A stretch of DNA of 64,000 nucleotides. It comes from Nitrospirota bacterium. GTDB lineage: Bacteria > Nitrospirota > Thermodesulfovibrionia > UBA6902 > DSMQ01. The stretch covers positions 12,914 to 76,913 of the forward strand of contig JACQXB010000004.1 of NCBI GenBank assembly GCA_016208965.1. The letters run 5' to 3'. Under the pieces are notes generated by a model. It was not told where the DNA came from, searched no databases, and saw only the letters and a list, made by a program, of their open reading frames with translations. The position numbers and the translations under genes are program-made. Positions 6,284 to 58,377 of the stretch are shown here, piece after piece (the stretch's first letter is position 1; the number at the start of each line of letters is the position of its first letter).

Positions 6284-6604
6284 GTCAAGACAAAGGGGGT
6301 CAATTCTTTACTAAAGTCAAGACAAAGGGTCAAACAAAGGGGGCTGGTCAAACAAAGGGGGTCAACAAACAAAGGGGGTCAATCAACAAACAAAGGGGGT
6401 CAACAAACAAAGGGGGTCAATCAACAAACAAAGGGGGTCAATTCTTTACTAATGACAAAGCACATTTTAAATTTTAAAAACTATCAATATGAAAGAATTG
6501 ACCCCCTTTGTTTTTCCCCCCCCTTTGTTTTTCCCAATTGACCCCCATGTTTTTCCCACATGTTTTTCCCATGATTGACCCCCATGTTTTTCCCATGTTT
6601 TTAC
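6284..6604. repeat. Iteron-like array: about 8 direct ACAAAGGGGGTCAA units, an AT-rich spacer, then inverted TTGACCCCC(TTTG/ATG)TTTTTCCC units
   Basis: Units at about 6290, 6322, 6334, 6351, 6369, 6389, 6407 and 6427 with 18-20 bp spacing. AT-rich spacer 6450-6495. Inverted units at about 6497, 6537 and 6566. Confidence 0.85.
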
Positions 6605-10823: not shown

Positions 10824-10848
10824 CAGTGAATAGTGAACAGTGAATAGT
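10824..10848. repeat. Heptamer tandem repeat YAGTGAA x3.5
   Basis: cagtgaa tagtgaa cagtgaa tagt, directly after the aroF stop. Confidence 0.85.
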
Positions 10849-11048
10849 CTAAAAACTAATATCCAAATTGAGCGATTCTTATACTTTGTCATTCCCCGAT
10901 TCAATCGGGGAATCCAGTCTTTTCGCCTTTCTGGATTCTCTGGTCAAGCCAGAGAATGACACTCGGTGGGTAGTTGCATTTTCTTCAAAATACTTTGATT
11001 AAATAAGATTTTTACTAAAAAATCGCTCAATTTAGCTAAAAACTAATA
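10849..11048. mobile_element. MITE-like insertion carrying a GTCATTC...GAATGAC cloverleaf unit (10888-10960)
   Basis: 13-bp direct repeats CTAAAAACTAATA at 10849-10861 and 11036-11048. 13-14 bp inverted repeats AAATTGAGCGATT at 10864-10877 and 11021-11034. Internal nested hairpins. Confidence 0.6.
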
Positions 11049-13240: not shown

Positions 13241-13574
13241 AGAATCTATTCGCCTAACGTTACTGGTGCAAAAGAAGTCCCGATGTTTCGGGATTAGGCT
13301 TTAATCTTTTGCAATGTGTTAGCCGTCAATTGCAGGTAGCCTAAAAATAGAACTTCCCATTTTCTTTTTTCCTTTTTTGGAAAATGAATTTTGAAGGTTT
13401 TAATGAAAAATTTAAAGACGGTACATTACAAAAAGATACTTCTTCTTTCGAGGTTGAACAAGATTTTTGGCAATGGGAAGAAGCCGAAACACTGAAAAAA
13501 CATTACGAATCCCTTAAAAGAGAATGGACTTAACCCAGCATGTTGACAGGTATCTGTGGGAAAAGTAAGTATTT

Positions 13575-25502: not shown

Positions 25503-25705
25503 AACTCCTCTCCTCCTTGAAACTTTGCGGAATTCCCAGCTTTTTTGTGTCACATTCTTAATTCGGAGAATCTCCCTTTTATTATCAAACAAGCTGTCAT
25601 CCTTTCAAAGCTGAACCCCCGACTTCTGATTAAATGTAATGTTATTTTGCAAGATACTTGCCTCAATCAACTTCTTATCTTTTTTAGATACGCCTTTCCT
25701 TGTTT

Positions 25706-26392: not shown

Positions 26393-26524
26393 TAGTTTTG
26401 CAATTAACCGAACCAAAGAGGGACACATCCTATTTTCTAAAAAATCTCCCTTTATAAGAAACCAAATATAAACACAAAAGGTGTCAGGCATTGAAATGTG
26501 AATTAACATTCCATGTTTTATATT

Positions 26525-26710
26525 TTACTTTTCTGAAAACGGATTAATGATTTTAAGTTTTTTCTCAATGACCTGCCCCTGCTGAAGGTCTTCAGTATAG
26601 AGAGCAGAGCAGTTACTCTCCAATGCTGAAGCTATGATAAGGCTGTCCCAATATGCGAAACCATCTATGTGCAGCGAGCTTATAGACCAAGACGGCACTG
26701 AATAAAACAA
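26525..26710 (-). pseudogene. PIN-domain remnant (C-terminal half only)
   Basis: DGFAYWDSLIIASALESNCSALYTEDLQQGQVIEKKLKIINPFS parallels the C-terminus of 27604..28020. Confidence 0.6.
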
Positions 26711-27052
26711 GGAACTCTGCTGAAAAAGTGACGATATAATCTTTCTTCATCTTTTGAATAATCTATGAAGCATTTTTATCATCTTGAATTGCCTTTACCA
26801 TGTTTTTAGCTGCATTGCCTTCTCCATAAAGTTTTATATTAAAATCAAACTGCCTGTCTTTCATCTTATAAAATGTATTTACAGAAAAGGGGACAGGCTA
26901 CTTTTTTCTGGTTTGTCTGGTCTATCTCAAATGTCATTGAGTCATAGCGTCGTTGCGTCATACAAATAGCTTACAAGCGAACAAGCCAACAAGCTGGGAA
27001 GCATGGAAAACGTGAGCCGTAAACAGCATGGAGCAAAGAGCAAGGCGTTCGG

Positions 27053-27265
27053 TTATGCCGCTACCAGAACGTCTTTCAGCTTCTCTTCCAGTGCCTTGAT
27101 CATATTCTGGATCGCCTCAACCTCTTTTTCCTCAAAGTATCTCTCCCCGCACTGTGAGCACACATAACCAGGGATTTTCTCAATGAAGAGATGATATCCA
27201 TTTCTGTCCACGGTGTATGAGACTGAGGCTTTTTCCATTTCCCCATTGCAGAACAGGCACTTCAT
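27053..27265 (-). CDS. YgiT/MqsA-type zinc-finger antitoxin
   Basis: CLFCNGEM...CSQCGERYF, two CxxC pairs. Overlaps the upstream DUF4258 gene. Confidence 0.8.
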   Translation of the reverse strand: MKCLFCNGEMEKASVSYTVDRNGYHLFIEKIPGYVCSQCGERYFEEKEVEAIQNMIKALEEKLKDVLVAA

Positions 27266-27579
27266 TTTTTTCTCCTTTTCTTAAAATCCTCTTGCCATTT
27301 TTCCAAAGACGGTATATATGCCGTTATTATAGCAAGATATTCCTCTTTTGGCGCGCATACTATATGGACGGGCCTTTTGGTATCAGGCATGGCGAACATC
27401 AGACAACTATGCCCCCTCTTGTCTTCTGGGTAATCCTCTATGATCTCGCCATTGAACACTACCTGCCTCACTTCTTCCACCGATATGAGCTCGTCCTCAG
27501 CGTTCATCTCATCAACTGCATGCGCAGTATAGATGATCCTCTTTGTTGCTGCTCGCCTTATTTGATCAACAAGATTCAT
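27262..27579 (-). CDS. DUF4258-family toxin-like protein
   Basis: IYTAHAVDEMNAEDELISVEEVRQVVFNGEIIEDYPEDKRG...PVHIVCA pattern. Confidence 0.7.
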   Translation of the reverse strand: MNLVDQIRRAATKRIIYTAHAVDEMNAEDELISVEEVRQVVFNGEIIEDYPEDKRGHSCLMFAMPDTKRPVHIVCAPKEEYLAIITAYIPSLEKWQEDFKKRRKK

Positions 27580-27603
27580 ACGTAAAGGGGACGGTTCTAT
27601 TTT

Positions 27604-28020
27604 TCATGAAAACGGATTAATGATCTTGAGTTTTTTTTCAATGATCTGGCCGTCCTGCATGTCTTCCGTATAAAGCGTTGAACAGTTATTTTCCAATGCA
27701 ACAGCCAATATTAAACTGTCCCAATATGCGAAACCATTGAGTATGCTGATATCCATAGCCTTTATAACCGATGAGGAAAGGACGTCAACTACATTAAAAT
27801 TTGAAGATATTTCCAACCCCATTTGTCTCGCTTCCTCTTTTTCCTTCAATCCTTTTTTGACCAGGACATGAAAGAATTCTCCAAGAACCTGTGTGCTGAT
27901 GATAATATCTTCAAAATATTTATCAACAAGGCTCTTTATTGTTTCTGTTTTTTCTTTGTTTGAATCGTCAGCATACAGGTATACCCAGAGATTTGTATCT
28001 ACGAAAACCCTATCGTTCAT
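27604..28020 (-). CDS. PIN-domain toxin
   Basis: VFVDTNLWVY, GFAYWDSLILAVA, LYTEDMQDGQ. Confidence 0.85.
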   Translation of the reverse strand: MNDRVFVDTNLWVYLYADDSNKEKTETIKSLVDKYFEDIIISTQVLGEFFHVLVKKGLKEKEEARQMGLEISSNFNVVDVLSSSVIKAMDISILNGFAYWDSLILAVALENNCSTLYTEDMQDGQIIEKKLKIINPFS

Positions 28021-28231
28021 GCAATTCTTCTCTATTGAACTTGTAGTCTTTGGGTAGGGTTATAGCATGTTTTTTGACAAATTCAAAAAAAACTTTTTTA
28101 TCATTTATGGGGCTCTTAAGTTTTAAGTTTTTTTTGCCATATTTTGTTAAAAGATACTCATAGAAATCGATTAACTCCTTTTTCACTTCCTTGGGCAGAA
28201 TATCAATATCTATCTCTTTTAGTCTTGCCAT
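28010..28231 (-). CDS. Putative antitoxin (DUF2281-like) of the downstream PIN toxin
   Basis: 73 aa; overlaps the PIN gene start; LPKEVKKELIDFYEYLLTKY motif. Confidence 0.5.
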   Translation of the reverse strand: MARLKEIDIDILPKEVKKELIDFYEYLLTKYGKKNLKLKSPINDKKVFFEFVKKHAITLPKDYKFNREELHER

Positions 28232-28391
28232 ATATTTCCTCCTTTACCTCTGCTATTTTTATTGCCATAAAACCCCCTCTTGCCTTATTTTAGCACAATC
28301 TCTCAGCAAACCTCACATGGATTTTGACATCCCCCATGGAAACAAACAAGGGCATAAATCTAAGAGTAAATCTAAGAGGGACACAGAGCCT

Positions 28392-28512
28392 GTCTAAAAA
28401 CTATAATTCCATCAGACTGTCATTCCCCGACTTGATCGGGGAATCCAGTTTTTTCAATAGGTTCTGGATTGTCCAGTCAAGCTGGACAATGACAAATACT
28501 GAGTTTTTAGAC
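28392..28512. mobile_element. 121-bp MITE with 11-bp perfect TIR (GTCTAAAAACT) and an internal GTCATTC...AATGAC cloverleaf unit (28419-28493)
   Basis: TIRs at 28392-28402 and 28502-28512. The internal hairpins match the copy at 10888-10960 with compensatory stem changes. Confidence 0.7.
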
Positions 28513-28623
28513 AAGCTCCACATCCCATATTCTAAAAAATCTCCCTTTATTATCAAACAAGCTGTCTCCCATCCAAACTGAAGGTGTAAAAGGGGACGCA
28601 ACCCTTTAACCCATCAGAAGTAT

Positions 28624-29022
28624 TCAGATTAACCAGTTTTCTAACTTCAAATCTTCTATCCGCTCAAAATGAAAAACATTATTTGTGATCAAAATGCAAT
28701 CGTTGGATACGGCTACCGAGGCTATCAGAATATCGAAATCTTCGATCACATTACCCCTTGCTCTGAGATCTGTCTTGATCTTTCCAAAGAGTCTTGCAGA
28801 TTCATCGCTCTCAGACAATATAGCCAGGTTTCTCTTGAAGGTTTCTATGCGGTGCAGATTTGCATCAACTTTTTTTGAATTATAGGCGCCGAAATATAGC
28901 TCAGCCAATACGCTATACGACAATGCTAATGAATAGGCCCCAACTTCTTGAACCTTCTTCATCAATTGTTGATTGCCGTTCAAAAGATAAATACATGTAT
29001 TAGTGTCCAAAAGATACTTCAA
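28624..29022 (-). CDS. vapC: VapC PIN-domain toxin
   Basis: MKYLLDTNTCIYLL, DILIASVAV, LITNNVFHFERIEDLKLENW. Confidence 0.88.
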   Translation of the reverse strand: MKYLLDTNTCIYLLNGNQQLMKKVQEVGAYSLALSYSVLAELYFGAYNSKKVDANLHRIETFKRNLAILSESDESARLFGKIKTDLRARGNVIEDFDILIASVAVSNDCILITNNVFHFERIEDLKLENWLI

Positions 29023-29276
29023 AATATCTTCTCTGCCCTGTTGGTAGATTTCCTACTTGAATAAATATCCCTTATCTGCTCTTCAACTGACCTGTCATCT
29101 TCCCATGTGCCACAGACTGAGAGGAATTCTTCGGTTGTTTTTTTCTCATCAAATTCAGAAAGCATGATCTCGCTTCTCATGAAATGGATTATCCTTGCCA
29201 GTTTTTCCTGCGCTGGTGCAGGTAATGCCTGCATTTCTCTAAGCACCTTTTCTTCATAGACCGTTTTCGTATGCAT
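29019..29276 (-). CDS. Putative antitoxin of the downstream VapC
   Basis: 85 aa; 4-nt overlap with vapC; the family was not recognised. Confidence 0.5.
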   Translation of the reverse strand: MHTKTVYEEKVLREMQALPAPAQEKLARIIHFMRSEIMLSEFDEKKTTEEFLSVCGTWEDDRSVEEQIRDIYSSRKSTNRAEKIF

Positions 29277-29831
29277 AAAACCTCCTTTATAAATTTCTGC
29301 GCTTCAGATATGGCAGTCCCGGCAGATGCACTATCCAATTTTCTTGCCCTCTATTATAACATTGTTCTCATTTTTTACCAGTTCTATTTTATCAAAACGG
29401 TAATGTCAAAACTTCTGTGTAAATTCATTTAAGGGTTTAATTCTCCATTAAAAGTTAGAAATAAATAAATAATAGGGACACTTCCCATATTATTATATTT
29501 GCTGATTAATTTTTTCATATTCTATGTATGGTTCAAACCTTCACAGAATTGGGGTCTTGAATCTTGAATTTTCCTTTCATCGTCCTCGCTATCCCTTTCC
29601 TCCGAATAACGTTCCCCATGGGGAATTTCTTACTTATTTCAACCAAAAAACCATTCATAATCATCATGGCTGCCGACCCAGAACCATGTCACTGCATGAA
29701 ACAGGGGGTCACATCTTCATATATCATTTAATATCTCCTCGACCTTTTTGAAAATCGGAACTATTTTAACTTTCCTTATATCCGAAACCTTTTGATTACT
29801 CCCGATTTTATGCCTTTCGGTAAACTCTATT

Positions 29832-30263
29832 TTACCAAGCCATTCGTTTTATAAATTCACTGGCTGTATTAATATCAATCCCTGCATAAGTCTTCAGGTT
29901 TAATAGATGACTATCACCTGAAACAATAACAGTTGCCTGTGCCGATATAGCACATTCCAATACCCGATTATCGTCAGGGTCTTCTTTTATCACATTAATC
30001 GTATGCCCCGCTTCTACTAAAGTGACGAACAATGCAATCTTTGCAACTGCCTTTTCAACAGCGTATTCTTTGCCTTCAAGCTTTTTAGAGAACTTCTCCC
30101 TTTTTAAAACTCCCTCTAACTTGTTCAATATTTCCATTGATACAAAAAGATGAATTTCTTTTCTCTCAGATTTCTCAAGAATCCTGGCTTCATTACCGTT
30201 CCACAAAAGTCCTGAAATAAGGGTATTCGTATCAAGAACGACCTTTTTCAAAATTACCGTCAT
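29832..30263 (-). CDS. PIN-family toxin (TIGR00305-like)
   Basis: VVLDTNTLISGLLW start; D-rich C-terminal VSGDSHLL. Confidence 0.78.
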   Translation of the reverse strand: MTVILKKVVLDTNTLISGLLWNGNEARILEKSERKEIHLFVSMEILNKLEGVLKREKFSKKLEGKEYAVEKAVAKIALFVTLVEAGHTINVIKEDPDDNRVLECAISAQATVIVSGDSHLLNLKTYAGIDINTASEFIKRMAW

Positions 30264-30517
30264 CCTTTCTTCCTATATTTTTTTATCTCCTCAGCGACAT
30301 CATCGATCTTTAACTTTTCTTTTTTAGCCATCTTCCTGAATGGACCGGCAACTTCACTAAACGTCATATCTTTAAGAGACTTATAAACTCTCTTAAGGTA
30401 TATCGTCTCCGAATCAAAAAAAAGGTCAAATTCCATACCCTTTTTAAGTTTGAACTTATCGCAAACATTCTTAGGAAATTCAATCATACCGCTATCCATC
30501 AGTTTGACTTTTTCCAT
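30260..30517 (-). CDS. AbrB/MazE/SpoVT-fold antitoxin
   Basis: IEFPKNVCDKFKLKKGMEFDLFFD; overlaps the PIN gene start. Confidence 0.72.
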   Translation of the reverse strand: MEKVKLMDSGMIEFPKNVCDKFKLKKGMEFDLFFDSETIYLKRVYKSLKDMTFSEVAGPFRKMAKKEKLKIDDVAEEIKKYRKKG

Positions 30518-31313: not shown

Positions 31314-32187
31314 CCTCTATCCCCTTCCATTCAAAGAATAACTGCACTGCCATTTCCGCATCAGGGTTATCAGGCGCAATGCCTTTTATCACTTTCTTAT
31401 CCTTTGATATCCGCCAAGCTATCTCAAGCGCGGCAAAAAGATAGCTATTATAAAGCCGGGATAAGTTTGTGGGATGCATTGTCTCTGACATAATCTTTTT
31501 CCTGATATTTTCAGGAGAGGTCTGGTAGCTGTCGTCTATTTTTGCAAGTATCCTTGCCTGCTCAAGCGCCTCTCCTTTTCTGCCTGTAAGGAGGTAGTGC
31601 ATTGCAATCGCATACCTCATGGGCGCATTTACAGGAGCTGCGGCAACAGCCTTTGCAAATTCTTTTTCTGCAAGCCGGGCATTACTGATATTTCTGTCAT
31701 AAAGCTTTCCGAGCGCCAGATGATAATCAGGATTCGCAGGCTCAAGATAAACCGCTTTTTTAAGGTATCTCGCTGAGTTTTCAAAAGCCTCTTTGGCTGA
31801 TACGGCTCCGGCAGGAAGGGGTTCAGCAACAGCGTCCATGCTTTCTGCCCATCTTCCGAGCATTGAATATATATCAGACAGTCCCTTATGATAGATAGAC
31901 TTTGACGGAACAAGAGCGGATGCTTTTTTCAGGGATAAGAGGGCGTCATTGTAATCAGATATTGTATCACCTGAGATACCCTTCATATCAAAATATTCTG
32001 TGGATTTATCATCAAGGATATAAGCCACCCTGCTATGATAATAGTCTGCAATAAGCATTCTGACGGGAAACGAGAGCAGAACGGCAATAAACAAAGCAAT
32101 GAGCAATGAGTTAAAAGATAGCAATGAGGTTAAAGGCAGCCTCGTTGCTCGTTGCTCGTTGCTCGTTGCTCGTTGCTCATTGCTCAT
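31309..32187 (-). CDS. TPR-repeat protein with an N-terminal TM anchor
   Basis: TM LLIALFIAVLL; several TPR-like helices (YLEPANPDYHLALGKLY and others). The N-terminus MSNEQRATSNEQRAT is encoded by heptamer repeats. Confidence 0.7.
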   Translation of the reverse strand: MSNEQRATSNEQRATRLPLTSLLSFNSLLIALFIAVLLSFPVRMLIADYYHSRVAYILDDKSTEYFDMKGISGDTISDYNDALLSLKKASALVPSKSIYHKGLSDIYSMLGRWAESMDAVAEPLPAGAVSAKEAFENSARYLKKAVYLEPANPDYHLALGKLYDRNISNARLAEKEFAKAVAAAPVNAPMRYAIAMHYLLTGRKGEALEQARILAKIDDSYQTSPENIRKKIMSETMHPTNLSRLYNSYLFAALEIAWRISKDKKVIKGIAPDNPDAEMAVQLFFEWKGIEE

Positions 32188-32230
32188 TGCTCATTGCTCA
32201 TTGCTCATTGCTCGTTGCTCATTGCTCATT
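32096..32230. repeat. GAGCAAT/GCTCRTT heptamer array (ii): short forward part, then about 13 inverted-orientation units
   Basis: agcaatgagcaatgag at 32096-32111; ctcgttg/ctcattg units at 32141-32230. Confidence 0.9.
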
Positions 32231-32635
32231 TTACGCTTGATCACGTTGTTTCCTAATGGCTATTTTGAGACCACCTATTATCCGGGAGACCTCAATCGCC
32301 AGGTCGCTTATATCCTTAAACTCTTCTGATGTAATATATCCAACATCAAGGGCTGCATAAAGTTGCGAACGGAGTTCAGCGCAAGATGCCTTTGCAATAA
32401 CAATGAATTGATGAAATTCTGCTCTACTACCACGCTCAAAGCCTTCAGCAAGATTTGACATGATTGATACAGCGGCTCTTTGAATTTGTTCGCGCAGTCC
32501 AAAATCCCTTGAGAATGCTCCCTTTCCAGTCATATGGTAAACATGTTTTGTTAATTTTCTGGCCTTTTGCCATGCAACAAGATCCTCAAACTTTTCAACT
32601 TTCATTTTTCTTCCTACTCGTTGCTCATTGCTCAT
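32231..32635 (-). CDS. Four-helix-bundle protein (23S rRNA intervening-sequence protein / Avd-like family)
   Basis: [13 protein letters not shown]...[42 protein letters not shown]. The likely true start is MKVEKF at 32605; the first 10 codons are heptamer-repeat sequence. Confidence 0.85.
32607..32634. repeat. GCTCRTT heptamer array (iii)
   Basis: ctcgttg ctcattg ctcattg cttgccc. Confidence 0.8.
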
Positions 32636-34190
32636 TGCTTGCCCGCCGGTCTCTTGGAGGGCTCATTACTCTTTGCTCTATGTTCAAGGTTGCATATGTT
32701 AACGCTGCTATTACAGTCAGGAGCAAAGCATTTGCCGGAATTCGCATGTTGAAATCCGTAAAACTGTGAACTGCTATTGCTACGCATGAGGCAAGCCCGG
32801 ATGCAGCCATGCACTTCACAAAATTATTATGCCTCTGACGCCATGCCTTTATAATCTTATAGAAAAAAAAGAAGAGCATCGTAATGACAATCATAAACCC
32901 TGCGATGCCTGTATCAGTAAAAATCTCTATATAGTCATTATGCGCATGCTCGTACAAGAATCGCGAGCGTCCAGTTTGATACTGAAGGTATATGTTCTCA
33001 AATGTACCGAGACCTGTCCCGAATACAGGGAAGTCCCTGACCATGTTAATTGTATCTTTCCAGATATCCGTCCGAGCTATTTTGCCTTCTTCTCCTATCT
33101 CTTCAAATCTGTCTTCTATTCTGTCCCAGCCTGCAATTAAAACCACTGATAATATCAGAATTCCTGCCATAGCAATAACGCCTGTTTTTTTTCTTAATGT
33201 TCTTCTGGTGCGGATTAGCAATGTGAAAAAGAGCATAGATGCTGTAAACCCTATTATCCCTCCCCTTGAAAGGCTTATGAACAAGACACCAGTCATTCCC
33301 ATAACAGCAAGAGACAGAAGGGTAATCGGCATAAGACTGCCGCTGACTGAGAGATTGGCAATCCTCTTGCTTAATGATAGATCAGGCAGTTCCTTTATTG
33401 TTGATGTCTTATAAAGGAGAAGCCCAATCGCCAGCGGTATTGCCATCTCCATGTATCCTGCAAAATGAGCGTGGCCTATATAGGGCCCCCAGATGTGACC
33501 CATATTTGAATTCAGACCTTCGCTCACAGGGTAAAACCAGAAAAGCCTGCCGTTCCATGTCATCTTCTGAACCACTGCAAAAACCGCAAGAAAACAACCC
33601 ATGTAAACTATGGCACGGGCAAGGCTGTTTACCTGCGGCTTTGTTTTATAGTGGTTAATTATCACCAGAAAAATTACAGTGTAAGCAGTGAGCTTGAAGA
33701 TATCATCTATTGTTGCAGACTGATAAATGCTTATGGTGCGCCATGTGCCTGCCATATCACCCGCAAATGTCTTATATAGCCTGCTTGTGGAAGGTGATAA
33801 CAGAGAGAGCAGATAGTCAGGCAAGGGGATAATCTGAAAGACTGCAATTAATATAAGGGCAGCAGGAAAAATGAGAATGCTCATTGCTCGTTGCTCATTG
33901 CTCATTGCTCGTTGCTCATTGCTCGTTGTTGCTCTTTGCTCATTGCTCTTTGCTCGTTGTATCAGCCATGCGCCGAATATTATGAATGCCATTATCTCCA
34001 TAACGGCTATTGACCAGTCTTGAACAGTTCCAAAAGCAAGAGGGGTGAATATCAAAAGCAGGACAATGCCCTTCTCTATCACAGCATTAAAAAATCCCCC
34101 CTCACCCCCCTTTAGTAAAGGGGGGATGGGGGGATTTTCTTTAAAGAGATTATTACTCTTCTTTAAAAAATTCATACTCTCTGAAGCCAT
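32625..34190 (-). CDS. O-antigen ligase-like (Wzy_C) membrane protein
   Basis: [20 protein letters not shown] motif and about 11 TM helices. The start is uncertain because a palindromic element lies in the first 35 codons. An internal SNEQRA repeat stretch is present. Confidence 0.75.
33879..33960. repeat. GCTCRTT heptamer array (iv), about 11 units, inside the ligase-like ORF
   Basis: Translated as [24 protein letters not shown] between TM helices. Confidence 0.9.
34089..34138. repeat. Palindromic AAAATCCCCC...GGGGGATTTT element
   Basis: aaaaatcccccctcacccccctttagtaaaggggggatggggggatttt. Confidence 0.9.
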
Positions 34191-41515: not shown

Positions 41516-42352
41516 TTGATAATCAGTCGGAGAATACATCATTTGAAAGCCACTATTTTTTCATTAACCATTTTCTTGATTATTTTTTTTGTTGACTGTG
41601 TTAATGCGGTAGATTTTGGTATTGGTATACATAGTGGTTACGGCATAATAAAATATAAGGAGCAGACTTCTGCCTTTGGAACCAACATTGAGTCAGAATC
41701 TAAACAGAATGTAGTTCTCTTTGGAGTATCAGGGGAATATTCTTTAAAAAAACCCGGAAACTTTTATATCGGTATTGTCACTGATTGGGCATCTGGTTTA
41801 AAGGATGAAGAAAGATGGCGTGAAAACGACATTCAAATTCAGACAAACGATGTAAAGTTTTTTGGCGAATTCTATGACTTTAGATTTGGCTACAAAAATA
41901 CATCTGATAATTTGTATTACAGGGTTCATATATCAGGGGGTTGGGATGGCTTGCATTTCAAAGGAGACAATATTATTCAAGAGGGGATTTCTGTATCAGG
42001 TAGTATTAAAAAGGACATTAGTCTGTGGAGAATAGGCGCAGGATTTGGAGCGGGGTATAGGCTCGGGAAATGGGCACTTGATGGAAGGCTTATGTATAAC
42101 TATTATCCAAAAGGCGAAGTAGAGAATAGCTTATATCCAGGCATTACATTTGATACCAATGGAACATGTTTTGATGGGGGGCTGGGAATAGGCAGGCAGA
42201 TTACTCGGAATCTGAGTTTTTACACAGGACTGAGCTATACATTAATAAAACTTAAAGAAGATATAAAAAGAAGTGGTTCTCAGTTAGTAGTTTTCCCTGA
42301 TAGCAAGACTGAGATGGTTCTTGGAATGGTAAATATAACTTATGCATTTTAG
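41516..42352 (+). CDS. Outer-membrane beta-barrel protein
   Basis: Signal peptide ...FFVDCVNA, Gly/Tyr-rich alternating strands, C-terminal YAF. Start is TTG at 41516 or 41543. Confidence 0.55.
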   Translation: MIISRRIHHLKATIFSLTIFLIIFFVDCVNAVDFGIGIHSGYGIIKYKEQTSAFGTNIESESKQNVVLFGVSGEYSLKKPGNFYIGIVTDWASGLKDEERWRENDIQIQTNDVKFFGEFYDFRFGYKNTSDNLYYRVHISGGWDGLHFKGDNIIQEGISVSGSIKKDISLWRIGAGFGAGYRLGKWALDGRLMYNYYPKGEVENSLYPGITFDTNGTCFDGGLGIGRQITRNLSFYTGLSYTLIKLKEDIKRSGSQLVVFPDSKTEMVLGMVNITYAF

Positions 42353-43234: not shown

Positions 43235-45343
43235 CTATTCTATGAACCTTAATATCTTATAGTTTTCATCAAAATATACAACCTTAAATCTCTCTTTATG
43301 GCCAATCCAGTAGAAACTGAGTAGAACTTTTTTTTCTTTCTCTATCCACTTGTTTTCTACTGAATTTGTTTTGATTAAGACATACGAAACCTTACTCTCT
43401 CTTAATCTTTTTATCCAGTCATTGTATGTATCAGATACAATATATACAATCTTGTTTGAAAATTCCCTATTCCACAAGGGTGAAAGAAACAGCGGTTCAA
43501 AGGTAAAGGCAAGTACATCTCCCTTTGTAATGTTTTTACTTATCCATATCCAGTATCCGTATTCCTTACGTACATGTAAATCTATATTAAAAGGTGCATG
43601 TCTTGCTATTGTTCGTTCCTTCGCTGGCAGATGAAAAAATTCTTTAATCTTTACAGGCATAATGGCTGGTGAATTTGCAGAAAGAAAGGTATATACTACA
43701 AGCAACAATGCAATAATTTTCAATTCCCTTCCTCTTTTATCAAAACACTCAAGCATAAGCCCAAAAGATACAGCACCCAGACCTATGATAAAAATAACAT
43801 ATCTCGTATTCCAGCTACGGGGATATATAAGAAAGGTAACAATAAGAATTAAACTCACAAATAAAAAGCCCTTTCTTTTTACGGCGTAAAAAAAGGCAGT
43901 CACTATGCTCGGCAGGAACAAGATAAACCATATAGGTCCAAATCCACTAAGTCTTGAATCATAAAGATAATATTCCACCCTTTCCATCCATACATAGAAT
44001 AATTTTCCCAGTGGTGATAAATTACTTATAACATCATGGACTGGTTCTATTATCCCTTTGAACTGTCCTTTAAAGACAATTATATTAAGATATGAGATGT
44101 CTATGGGGTATAAGGGGTTATTATAAATAACCCAATTCTTCATATACCAGTAACCCCCTGTTAAAAACACAGGGACGATAAAATAAACTGCATATGTCAT
44201 AAAAGTTTCTTTCACCCCGTTAGAAACTCTATTTCTAACGGGGTTCACTATATATTCTTTATATCCTGAAGAAATAATGTTAATTGGTTTTTTGCACTTT
44301 ATAAATTCTTGGATTATGACCATGAGTGATAGAACCACGACAAATAACAGACCCGATCCCTTTGAGCCCAGTAAAATTCCGGCTGATAATCCAGCTAAAA
44401 GAATGGGTATTCTGTCATTCCGAGCCCTTTGCTTTCTGTCATTCTGATGCCTCCCGATGCTTCGGGACGGCAGAAAAATCTCGCTTGAGATTGCTTCGTC
44501 CCGAAATGTCGGGACTCGCAATGACAGGTGAGAGACAAGAAAGTTTATAGCAATGAGAAATAGCACTGCTACAGCAACATCCGCATAGTTTGTTGTAGAT
44601 TGCAAAATTATTATGGGGGTAAAGAAAAACAGCAGTGAAGAGTAAATCGCATATTTTTCTTTTATCCCTGCCTTTATGGCAATGCTGTAAATCGTAAGAA
44701 CCCCTACAATGGTAAAAGGCAGCTGGCTTAAATCTACTATAACGTCATTTCTTAAAAATATAACATTCCATAAAAAAAATAATTCTATATTCTTAGGCAG
44801 GGCATTTAGAACCACATCAATAAATAAGAAGGGAGGGCTATCTTGTATTGCACCGCTCTGTATAATGCGCCCCATTGACGGAAGGTGATACCATAGGGCA
44901 TCCCATGTATATGAAGGGAAGAGATAGCCCAGAAAAATTAACCAGAGTATAGATATTAAAAAAAGTCCAAAGAGAAATAATAGTATTCCATCGCCCCTAA
45001 TTATGCTCAGAAACCGATTTAACTCATTTTTAACCTCTTTAAGAATATCCCTTAAAAGGACAAAGGGCTGTCCACTTTGTATAAAGACAAAAATCAACAC
45101 AAGTGATGACACGGAAATATTTAATATAAAAAGAGGCATTGCATATAGCCCTTTGAACAAAATACCTAAGAGCATTTCTGTTACCACTATCTGCGTTAGC
45201 CCCAAAATAAATGCGCCTATTAGTCTGTCGATAAAAGATAAGAAATGTCTTTTGTTAAAAAGGAATATATACCACGAAGAAAACAAAAGGATATTTATAA
45301 GCAGATAAATAGCAACATTAAAAGGTTTCATTTCACCATACAA
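43235..45343 (-). CDS. Large polytopic membrane protein, GT-C (ArnT/PMT-like) glycosyltransferase candidate
   Basis: 702 aa with more than 12 TM helices and a soluble C-terminal domain. Contains an in-frame repeat-element insert (see 44414-44525). Confidence 0.45.
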   Translation of the reverse strand: MYGEMKPFNVAIYLLINILLFSSWYIFLFNKRHFLSFIDRLIGAFILGLTQIVVTEMLLGILFKGLYAMPLFILNISVSSLVLIFVFIQSGQPFVLLRDILKEVKNELNRFLSIIRGDGILLFLFGLFLISILWLIFLGYLFPSYTWDALWYHLPSMGRIIQSGAIQDSPPFLFIDVVLNALPKNIELFFLWNVIFLRNDVIVDLSQLPFTIVGVLTIYSIAIKAGIKEKYAIYSSLLFFFTPIIILQSTTNYADVAVAVLFLIAINFLVSHLSLRVPTFRDEAISSEIFLPSRSIGRHQNDRKQRARNDRIPILLAGLSAGILLGSKGSGLLFVVVLSLMVIIQEFIKCKKPINIISSGYKEYIVNPVRNRVSNGVKETFMTYAVYFIVPVFLTGGYWYMKNWVIYNNPLYPIDISYLNIIVFKGQFKGIIEPVHDVISNLSPLGKLFYVWMERVEYYLYDSRLSGFGPIWFILFLPSIVTAFFYAVKRKGFLFVSLILIVTFLIYPRSWNTRYVIFIIGLGAVSFGLMLECFDKRGRELKIIALLLVVYTFLSANSPAIMPVKIKEFFHLPAKERTIARHAPFNIDLHVRKEYGYWIWISKNITKGDVLAFTFEPLFLSPLWNREFSNKIVYIVSDTYNDWIKRLRESKVSYVLIKTNSVENKWIEKEKKVLLSFYWIGHKERFKVVYFDENYKILRFIE
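44414..44525. repeat. GTCATTC...AATGAC element (three hairpins) inside ORF 43235..45343
   Basis: tcccgatgcttcggga, aatctcgcttgagatt and gtcccgaaatgtcgggac, enclosed by gtcatt/aatgac. Translated as RVPTFRDEAISSEIFLPSRSIGRHQNDRKQRARND. Confidence 0.85.
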
Positions 45344-56673: not shown

Positions 56674-56807
56674 TATGTATCACCCTTTATATATTATATA
56701 ATAATTTTTACCTAAAGGTAGTGATTTGTTACACCCTCTGCCTTTCTCATTTGTAAAAAATGTCAATAGTCAACGGACTGTTGAAAAACTCTAAAATAAC
56801 CGTAAGT

Positions 56808-56996
56808 GTCATTCCCGCATGCTTTTAGCAGGAATCTGTCCCCCCTTAGTAAGGGGGGATTTAAGGGGGGTCTGGATTCCTGCTTTCGCAGGAATCGACA
56901 TGAGCCATTGGCTCACAAAGGAACACGAAAATATCCTCCCCCCTTTGTAAAATCCCCCTCTATTCCCCCTTTACTAAAGGGGGATGAAGGGGGATA
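56808..56996. repeat. Composite intergenic repeat: GTCATTCCCGC-type unit, GGATTCCTGC/GCAGGAATC palindrome, GAGCCATTGGCTC palindrome and an AAAATCCCCC...GGGGGAT element
   Basis: Read directly. ORF 56806..56997 is just its translation (SPLSKGGFKGG...IPPLLKGDEGG). Confidence 0.85.
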
Positions 56997-58104: not shown

Positions 58105-58377
58105 TTAACCTGAATCCTGCGTCATTGCATAAGATATGATAACACAAAGTTCAAAAAATGCTACTAACCATGCAGTTTTTTGGTATAATGAACACTATTT
58201 AAAGGTTATTGTAAAAACCTACTTTTTAATTAGGTTTCTGCGATACATGAAATACGGTACTAAAAATCTAAGAAGAGATGATGGAATATGCATTAAAGCA
58301 GATAGAAAAAGAACTGGATGCCCGATTAAAAACTTCGGGCATGACATTTATTTGGTTTCACGCAGGATTCAGGTTAA
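58105..58377. repeat. 273-bp unit bounded by perfect 18-bp inverted repeats TTAACCTGAATCCTGCGT
   Basis: IR-L at 58105-58122, IR-R at 58360-58377. The interior carries TGGTATAAT (58181-58189) and the hairpin ATGCCCGA/TCGGGCAT (58318-58342). Confidence 0.8.

Follow-up and report, generated by a model that had tools for sequence, protein, structure and literature searches.

What are the two short, stably folded elements in a 64-kb stretch of a Nitrospirota genome (contig JACQXB010000004.1 of assembly GCA_016208965.1; hereafter the window, to whose positions all coordinates refer)? A preliminary description had found that copy 1 (10888-10960) and copy 2 (28419-28493) share a closing stem and three hairpins with compensated substitutions. 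It had likened their four-way junction to a tRNA in shape, and had noted that copy 2 lies between terminal inverted repeats (TIRs), as would a miniature inverted-repeat transposable element (MITE). Here we propose that these 73-75-nt elements are probably DNA-level inverted doublets of Ssn-related motifs (SRMs), the gene-less form of a Nitrospirota cassette that carries an Ssn-type GIY-YIG gene, and that they are targeted by an Ssn nuclease.

Two inverted doublets of Ssn-related motifs

Both sequences stand where they had been described. Copy 1 reads GTCATT CCCCGA ttcaa TCGGGG AATCCAG-N13-CTGGATT CTCTGG tcaag CCAGAG AATGAC, and copy 2 reads GTCATT CCCCGA cttga TCGGGG AATCCAG-N15-CTGGATT GTCCAG tcaag CTGGAC AATGAC. 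In hairpin 3 the copies differ by three substitutions per arm, all of which are matched in the opposite arm, exactly as claimed. The window contains the skeleton GTCATT-N15-25-AATCCAG-N8-25-CTGGATT four times, at two loci and on both strands of each, compared with 0.00 in shuffled sequences. The RNA minimum-energy fold of either strand yields the closing stem and three hairpins (z -4.6 to -5.5; 0/200 shuffles equally stable), and the 121-nt unit that includes the outer repeat of copy 2 reaches z -6.8 and -7.0. Folding with DNA parameters prefers three serial hairpins over the four-way junction, with arms of 9 bp formed via ATT...AAT (z about -5).

The unit is largely accounted for by a repeat family that is already known. 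A recent study (PMC11893778; Nat Commun 2025) extended the Neisseria dRS3 repeat to the 28-nt NTS, CGTCATTCCCGCGMAVGCGGGAATCYRG, and generalized it to "Ssn-related motifs" with the degenerate pattern HGTCWY-N0-2-YYVSBRH-N0-5-WNVSBRG-N0-2-RNCYNB. The cognate enzyme SsnA is a 94-aa single-domain GIY-YIG protein that binds and cuts the hairpin solely as single-stranded DNA (ssDNA), not as dsDNA or RNA, and the cut falls a few nucleotides upstream of the hairpin. Binding needs the C after the palindrome and cleavage needs the three nucleotides before it; among Ssn enzymes, binding and cleavage of SRMs are established only for those of Neisseria, N. elongata, N. wadsworthii and Wolbachia. The same study raises the hypothesis that NTS-ssnA-NTS forms an insertion-sequence-like unit (PMC11893778). 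In the window, the SRM pattern is found at 10887-10917, 28418-28448 and 56807-56839, three matches against 0.07 expected from 100 dinucleotide shuffles. Arm A of copy 2 contains a 9-bp palindrome, ATTCCCCGA/TCGGGGAAT, with GTC on its 5′ side and C on its 3′ side. Judged by its sequence, each half of the element is GTC, a 9-bp palindrome (ATT-N6/N6'-AAT) and CCAG, with one SRM per strand. Because an asymmetric motif is present as two inverted copies, the "closing stem" GTCATT/AATGAC and "hairpin 2" AATCCAG/CTGGATT pair by construction. In our reading the elements are a selfish or mosaic repeat at the DNA level and no new structured RNA.

The likeness to SRM/NTS extends over the whole unit, (C/T)GTCATT, palindrome and AATCCAG, with GTC 5′ and C 3′ and with CCCCGA arms that fit the SRM pattern. 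It extends to the layout as well: in relatives, the arms border a small single-domain GIY-YIG gene in the manner of NTS-ssnA-NTS, and many copies are dispersed between genes. The strict Neisseria NTS (CGTCATTCCCGCGMAVGCGGGAATCYRG, ≤1 mismatch) is not found in the window, whose arms, (T)GTCATTCCCCGActtgaTCGGGGAATCCAG, are 31 nt long instead of 28 and have another stem and loop; CCCCGA-N5-TCGGGG places 11 nt between ATTCCC and GGGAAT, compared with 8. The ATTCCC...GGGAAT palindrome core is also that of dRS3, but dRS3 is ATTCCC-N8-GGGAAT, whereas arm A is ATTCCC-N11-GGGAAT and arm B is ATTGTC.../ATTCTC.... Nitrospirota are not mentioned in PMC11893778, and a search of its text yielded neither tight gene-less inverted doublets nor the ~135-bp composite with a covarying outer repeat described below.

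A scan for the exact CCCCGA arm, with one genome per species, returned at least 117 genome stretches. Among the matches listed, to which the counts of arms and doublets given here also refer, these came mostly from Nitrospirota/Thermodesulfovibrionia metagenome-assembled genomes (MAGs), with some from Thermodesulfobacteriota, Omnitrophota and Alphaproteobacteria, and 47-52 of the 126 CCCCGA arms were combined with an inverted partner in the layout of the window elements. The closest sampled genome shares ~75% nucleotide identity with the window in genes. The skeleton also matched 114 IMG/VR viral contigs, on both strands in most of them, which makes the element part of a very large family.

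The search had left the partner arm unconstrained, and 13 distinct gap-free partner arms made up the covariation sample. Their stems (GTCCGG, ATCCGG, CTCTGG, GTCCAG, CCGGG, CCGCA, CCCGC, ACCCGC and others) usually enclose the loop CTTGA, with CC always next. Pairing was retained in 96.6% of cells and five of the six variable stem pairs had changed on both sides; 0/500 shuffles reached the observed values and slid controls paired at 29-45%. G-U pairs were rare (2/117 cells). Such strong covariation confirms selection for pairing, as the preliminary description had deduced from two copies, but it fits a DNA hairpin equally well as an RNA hairpin. Where the two arms differ in ATT/AAT, pairing within the arm was kept in 18/18 cases, so that the cross-arm junction pairs are necessarily broken. 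Helices 1-3, closing stem and hairpin 2 included, were invariant in the sample, being partly fixed by the search pattern. A covariance model scored the two strands almost alike (Table 1), and among 52 doublets the neighbouring upstream open reading frame (ORF) pointed in the same direction as the doublet in 20 and in the opposite direction in 20; six lay within ORFs and one between convergent genes. The similar strand scores, the lack of orientation bias and the within-arm pairing fit a DNA-level element, not a strand-specific RNA or terminator.

GIY-YIG genes between the same arms

In relatives, the position of the 13-15-nt spacer is occupied by a GIY-YIG gene between the same arms, which identifies the window elements as gene-less doublets. 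In a Nitrospiraceae MAG (locus L204), a GIY-YIG ORF (Pfam PF01541, E 9e-14) lies exactly between the arms GTCATT-CCCCGG-cttga-CCGGGG-AATCCAG on the left and CTGGATT-CCCCGA-tcaag-TCGGGG-AATGAC on the right, and the same MAG also has gene-less doublets (L149, L153). A second such gene, between CTCCGG and CCCCGA arms, was found in the Nitrospirae MAG GCA_016195565.1 (L313), which shares its sequencing project with the sole read set containing the DAHP synthase of the window. Stems of the class seen in arm B of copy 2 (GTCCGG, CTCCGG, CCCTGG) likewise border GIY-YIG genes elsewhere.

A metagenome scan for close GIY-YIG homologues provided 78 usable loci. At 42 of them a perfect GTC-hairpin stood directly upstream of the gene, at 46 such a hairpin stood downstream on the opposite strand, and 27 had one on either side, compared with a background of 15/871 control windows (1.7%) of the same loci. 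Arms at these loci included CCCCGA, GTCCGG, CCCTGG and GCCCGA; more distant homologues had exact Neisseria-type CCCGC-gcag-GCGGG, and an exact Neisseria-type NTS flanks some 70%-identical homologues (L264). Separately, an IMG/VR contig (L017:10530-10990) carries a frameshifted GIY-YIG gene flanked by another hairpin type, GTCAGCCCGGG-cttga-CCCGGGCC; since this gene is bordered by a different hairpin, the association of gene and hairpin is valid for further arm sequences.

The protein family returned 6471 matches; in MAGs of Nitrospirae and Thermodesulfovibrionia its members bear the annotation "GIY-YIG nuclease family protein". The cassette gene encodes about 96-105 aa, and members are usually called at 105 aa because the ORF extends into the right arm. 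The protein matches only the GIY-YIG family in Pfam, with GIY-Tyr/YIG-Tyr/Glu spacing of 8/19/66 against 6/17/64 in SsnA (our own count compared with PMC11893778). Among solved structures, single-domain GIY-YIG proteins of the UPF0213 type come closest to it, and no Ssn structure was found in PDB. The sole NCBIfam match, to a group I intron endonuclease, was below threshold and was discarded.

By analogy, the window doublet would relate to the cassette as a MITE does to an insertion sequence, or a REPIN to its RAYT. Published biochemical work on N. meningitidis SsnA leads us to infer the following steps. When the DNA becomes single-stranded, in replication, repair or uptake, each arm would fold into a hairpin. 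An Ssn acting in trans, and presumably encoded in this genome, would bind the palindrome together with the C just 3′ of it and cut a few nucleotides 5′ of GTC; on a doublet, this would place one cut at each outer edge, the two being on opposite strands. Such cleavage probably underlies the spread of the repeat, in a homing-like or MITE-like manner, and could also modulate ssDNA recombination at the loci that carry the element.

The outer repeat of copy 2 and competing explanations

The perfect 11-bp TIRs that the preliminary description had noted at copy 2 are real: GTCTAAAAACT lies at 28392-28402 and inverted at 28502-28512, and the repeat extends to 17 bp with one mismatch. Through this outer 17-bp inverted repeat, also designated GAGYCTGTCYAWAAACT, copy 2 can be assigned on sequence grounds to a ~135-bp composite subfamily restricted to Nitrospirota. 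Over 162 bp, the segment 28374-28532 shares 89% identity with a locus in a Thermodesulfovibrio-like MAG (L152) where the neighbouring genes are unrelated, and it has weaker matches to ~40 further loci. The composite consists of the outer repeat, a left spacer of 16-18 nt, the doublet, a right spacer of 8-10 nt and the inverted outer repeat, with an interior of constant length (101 nt). Between genomes the outer repeat varies with compensating changes (GAGCYTGTCTAAAAACT / GAGTCTGTCCATAAACT / GTATCTGTGTATAAACT), and the two flanks of one copy agree far better with each other than flanks do across copies. Among the matches listed, 11-14 of 47 doublets carry the repeat, at a set spacing from the core. 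All outer-repeat pairs found enclose an SRM doublet, and some of these doublets hold additional palindromic units within their spacer. No gene-sized segment lies between outer repeats in 826 kb of related loci (largest interior 382 nt), and the one relative that does carry a gene has the inner SRM arms in common with the composite, but not the outer repeats. The idea of a MITE thus holds in part: there is a dispersed composite with covarying terminal inverted repeats, but the search of these loci for a transposase gene with the same ends yielded no partner. Of four copies belonging to the window's subtype, three (the window, L152 and L196, but not L173) have CACA on both sides, which could represent a target duplication or belong to the element itself.

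Copy 1 has a setting of its own. It lies inside a perfect 13-bp inverted repeat, AAATTGAGCGATT (10865-10877, 11021-11033), around which a 13-bp direct repeat, CTAAAAACTAATA (10849-10861, 11036-11048), ends right before the tyrA start codon. The arrangement suggests another MITE-like family, in which the direct repeat resembles a target duplication. The terminus CCTAAATTGAGCGATT recurs at three loci (L139, L195, L218) of another Thermodesulfovibrionales MAG, once followed by another SRM doublet. An outer-repeat-like motif at 42227 (-) was judged a chance match, as it lies inside coding sequence and has no partner.

A conventional MITE, in which a DDE-type transposase acts on the 17-bp outer TIRs and the SRM doublet is cargo or founding site, appears unlikely. 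The fixed spacing, the compensating changes and the constant interior of the composite would suit it, as would the CACA flanks and the inverted and direct repeats around copy 1, but the outer repeats enclose no gene-sized segment and are lacking in ~70% of doublets and in all GIY-YIG cassettes examined. The doublet itself thus needs another explanation than the outer repeat; conversely, the two parts are not independent, since every outer-repeat pair encloses an SRM doublet. With MITEs the elements share their size (75-135 bp), non-coding content, copy number, terminal inverted repeats and a related gene-bearing unit with the same ends; they differ in that no transposase partner was found, in showing CACA flanks in three of four copies of one subtype only, and in having strand-specific hairpins as ends instead of plain protein-binding inverted repeats. 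A REP/REPIN-type repeat mobilized by a RAYT, an IS200/IS605-like HUH Y1 transposase, would follow the same logic, and PMC11893778 itself likens the Ssn system to REP/REPIN-RAYT. As with the REPs and BIMEs of Gammaproteobacteria, short hairpin repeats form inverted doublets and cluster as mosaics between genes, one small nuclease gene is itself bordered by the repeats, and recognition is of ssDNA. The gene nested between the arms, however, is a GIY-YIG hydrolase and not a HUH transposase (no search for a RAYT was made). REP heads are of the GTAG type, whereas the motif here is GTC-ATT..., and we regard this explanation as highly improbable.

We give equally little credence to a structured non-coding RNA, that is, a four-way junction of tRNA-like shape selected for its RNA fold. 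Its predicted folds are very stable (z about -5), hairpin 3 carries compensatory changes, and copy 1, in the aroF-tyrA operon, would be transcribed. Yet no variation occurs in the closing stem or in hairpin 2, which hence lend no covariation support, the ATT/AAT variants preserve pairs within each arm and break those of the junction, both strands score alike, gene orientation is even, and G-U pairs are rare. Moreover, some doublets lie within ORFs, the same arms occur ~300 nt apart around a protein gene, where the junction could not form, and SsnA does not bind the RNA form (PMC11893778). An ARAGORN scan for tRNA and tmRNA was empty, in line with the absence of tRNA features noted at the outset, and no Rfam family reached its gathering score anywhere in the window. 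By E-value, weak generic hairpin and miRNA matches arose near the element, as did Wolbachia WsnRNA46 (18 bits against a 65-bit cut-off); these were treated as noise. An intrinsic terminator or mRNA-stabilizing hairpin as the selected function is only slightly less improbable: arm A of copy 2 is followed by CCAGTTTTTT, called terminator-like on the + strand, and the spacer that follows arm A in the family is rich in T, but this one consensus match is not on the strand that carries the genes next to copy 2 (-). Doublets show no orientation bias and only 1/52 stands between convergent genes, and some copies are inside ORFs or have a gene between their arms.

Several points also weigh against targeting by an Ssn nuclease. 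GIY-YIG nucleases hydrolyse DNA and, to our knowledge, strand transfer is not known for them. The outer inverted repeat with its CACA flanks could point instead to a conventional transposase. Arm B of both copies (CTCTGG, GTCCAG) does not match the strict SRM pattern, although the GTCATT/AATCCAG flanks and the CTTGA loop are kept. Changing the palindrome sequence while keeping the structure abolishes the activity of the Neisseria enzyme (PMC11893778), and, given this sensitivity, one enzyme may not serve both arms. Homology of the Nitrospirota GIY-YIG proteins to Neisseria SsnA (CDD cd10448) is putative, being suggested by size, domain, catalytic-residue spacing and shared flanking motifs. Finally, no GIY-YIG ORF was found in the 64-kb window by regular expression, phmmer or a profile of 80 homologues. 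Even so, we consider an Ssn-targeted doublet the probable explanation of both copies.

Other repeats and the biology of the family

Further hairpin units lie elsewhere in the window (Table 1). The "related three-hairpin unit" of the preliminary description, at 44414-44525, exists, but it belongs to a different subtype (GTCATTGCGAG...) and lies inside an ORF. It encodes ~39 residues (SHLSLRVPTFRDEAISSEIFLPSRSIGRHQNDRKQRARNDR) in a variable loop of a 702-aa membrane protein and is absent from 39/39 aligned homologues. Insertion in frame in a protein gene recalls the Rickettsia palindromic elements, a likeness that holds for this unit only and not for the two doublets; organism and sequence family differ. 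The isolated CCCGA-N4-TCGGG hairpins that had been reported are real and non-random, with six (13279, 44453, 44500, 57111, 58897, 63031) against 0.03 expected; those at 13279, 57111 and 58897 are without GTCATT and AATCC flanks, and those at 44453 and 44500 are the inner hairpins of the 44414 unit. The diverged doublet at 56808-56899 is intergenic, and a G/C-rich CCCCCC..GGGGGG palindrome is nested in its spacer. The solitary hairpin at 58314-58345 (-) can also be written GTCATGCCCGA...TCGGGCATCCAG.

Table 1. Positions of the doublets, their arms, the outer repeats and further hairpin units in the window.
Feature	Position	Strand	Remarks
Copy 1, inverted SRM doublet	10888..10960		13-nt spacer; aroF-tyrA intergenic; covariance model 84 bits (+), 71 bits (-)
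Copy 1 arm A, GTCATT-CCCCGA-ttcaa-TCGGGG-AATCCAG	10888..10917	+	matches published SRM pattern
Copy 1 arm B, GTCATT-CTCTGG-cttga-CCAGAG-AATCCAG	10931..10960	-	identical arm in L180, L181, L224
AGTCTAAAAACT, resembling left outer repeat, upstream of copy 1	10846..10857	+	without inverted partner on right
Copy 2, inverted doublet of two SRM/NTS-like hairpins	28419..28493		15-nt spacer; covariance model 98 bits (+), 77 bits (-)
Copy 2 arm A, GTCATT-CCCCGA-cttga-TCGGGG-AATCCAG	28419..28448	+	exact match to published degenerate SRM pattern
Copy 2 arm B, GTCATT-GTCCAG-cttga-CTGGAC-AATCCAG	28464..28493	-	flanks and loop as arm A, other stem
Left outer repeat, GAGCCTGTCTAAAAACT	28386..28402	+	16-18 nt from core, fixed in homologous copies of other Nitrospirota genomes, with compensating variants
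Right outer repeat, AGTTTTTAGACAAGCTC (+) = GAGCTTGTCTAAAAACT (-)	28502..28518	-	one mismatch to left
Composite repeat containing copy 2, full extent	28374..28532		dispersed family
Second SRM-like subtype doublet, GTCATTGCGAG...CGAAGCAATC, internal TCCCGA hairpins	44414..44525	-	in frame inside ORF 43235-45343 (-)
Diverged doublet, GTCATT-CCCGC..GCAGG-AATCTGT ... CTGGATT-CCTGC-tttc-GCAGG-AATCGAC	56808..56899		marginal covariance-model match
Solitary NTS-like hairpin, GTCATGCCCGA-agttttta-ATCGGGCATCCAG	58314..58345	-	intergenic

At four loci of other Nitrospirota (L124:3747, L142:7630, L191:954, L172:2593), GTCA-palindrome units (GTCACCCTGAGC..., GTCATGGTGAGC...) are nested in the spacer of a doublet, or one SRM within another, forming mosaic arrays that are BIME- and NIME-like. 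NIMEs are repeat units between inverted copies that form mosaic intergenic arrays. The elements described here resemble them in forming mosaic arrays and in having units bracketed by inverted repeats, but only 13-15 nt separate the window arms, compared with RS units of 50-150 bp. Other repeats in the window (32132-32252, 32587-32651, 33864-33973; 6318-6441; 34091, 37969, 38030, 55149, 56950) comprise tandem heptamers TGCTC(A/G)T, 17-nt CAAACAAAGGGGGTCAA-type arrays, and palindromic units AAAATCCCCC...GGGGGGAT at five sites. The region ~26500-30500 (-) is dense in small toxin-antitoxin-like gene pairs (PIN/VapC-like ORFs), and copy 2 lies between two such modules; paralogous segments are present (26529-26664 / 27602-27737), with repeated downstream sequences at 25551, 26424 and 28519.

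The SRM/Ssn system itself is known, having been characterized in 2025. New here are the Nitrospirota lineage, the tight gene-less doublets and the composite with covarying outer repeats. A false lead, a tRNA-like RNA, is removed: what had suggested it is a repeat type, accounted for in 2025, that is present twice. The Ssn system is extended to Nitrospirota, and to Thermodesulfovibrionia among them, where gene-bearing cassettes and gene-less doublets occur side by side. For genome annotation, the elements yield spurious small ORFs (peptides such as SFPDLIGESS and FARNDR) and may lengthen real genes.

The composite form, the nested insertions and the in-frame insertion into a gene are marks of an actively spreading selfish element and support the insertion-sequence-like NTS-ssnA-NTS hypothesis of PMC11893778. 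Our data thus add circumstantial support for SRM-ssn-SRM cassettes behaving as mobile elements. It is possible, if still doubtful, that an Ssn-type GIY-YIG single-strand nuclease, acting in trans, propagates both the ~135-bp composites and the bare doublets, which would then be non-autonomous mobile elements. If this is true, SRM-ssn-SRM cassettes would constitute a new class of mobile element with MITE-like derivatives, based on the cleavage of ssDNA hairpins and using no transposase.

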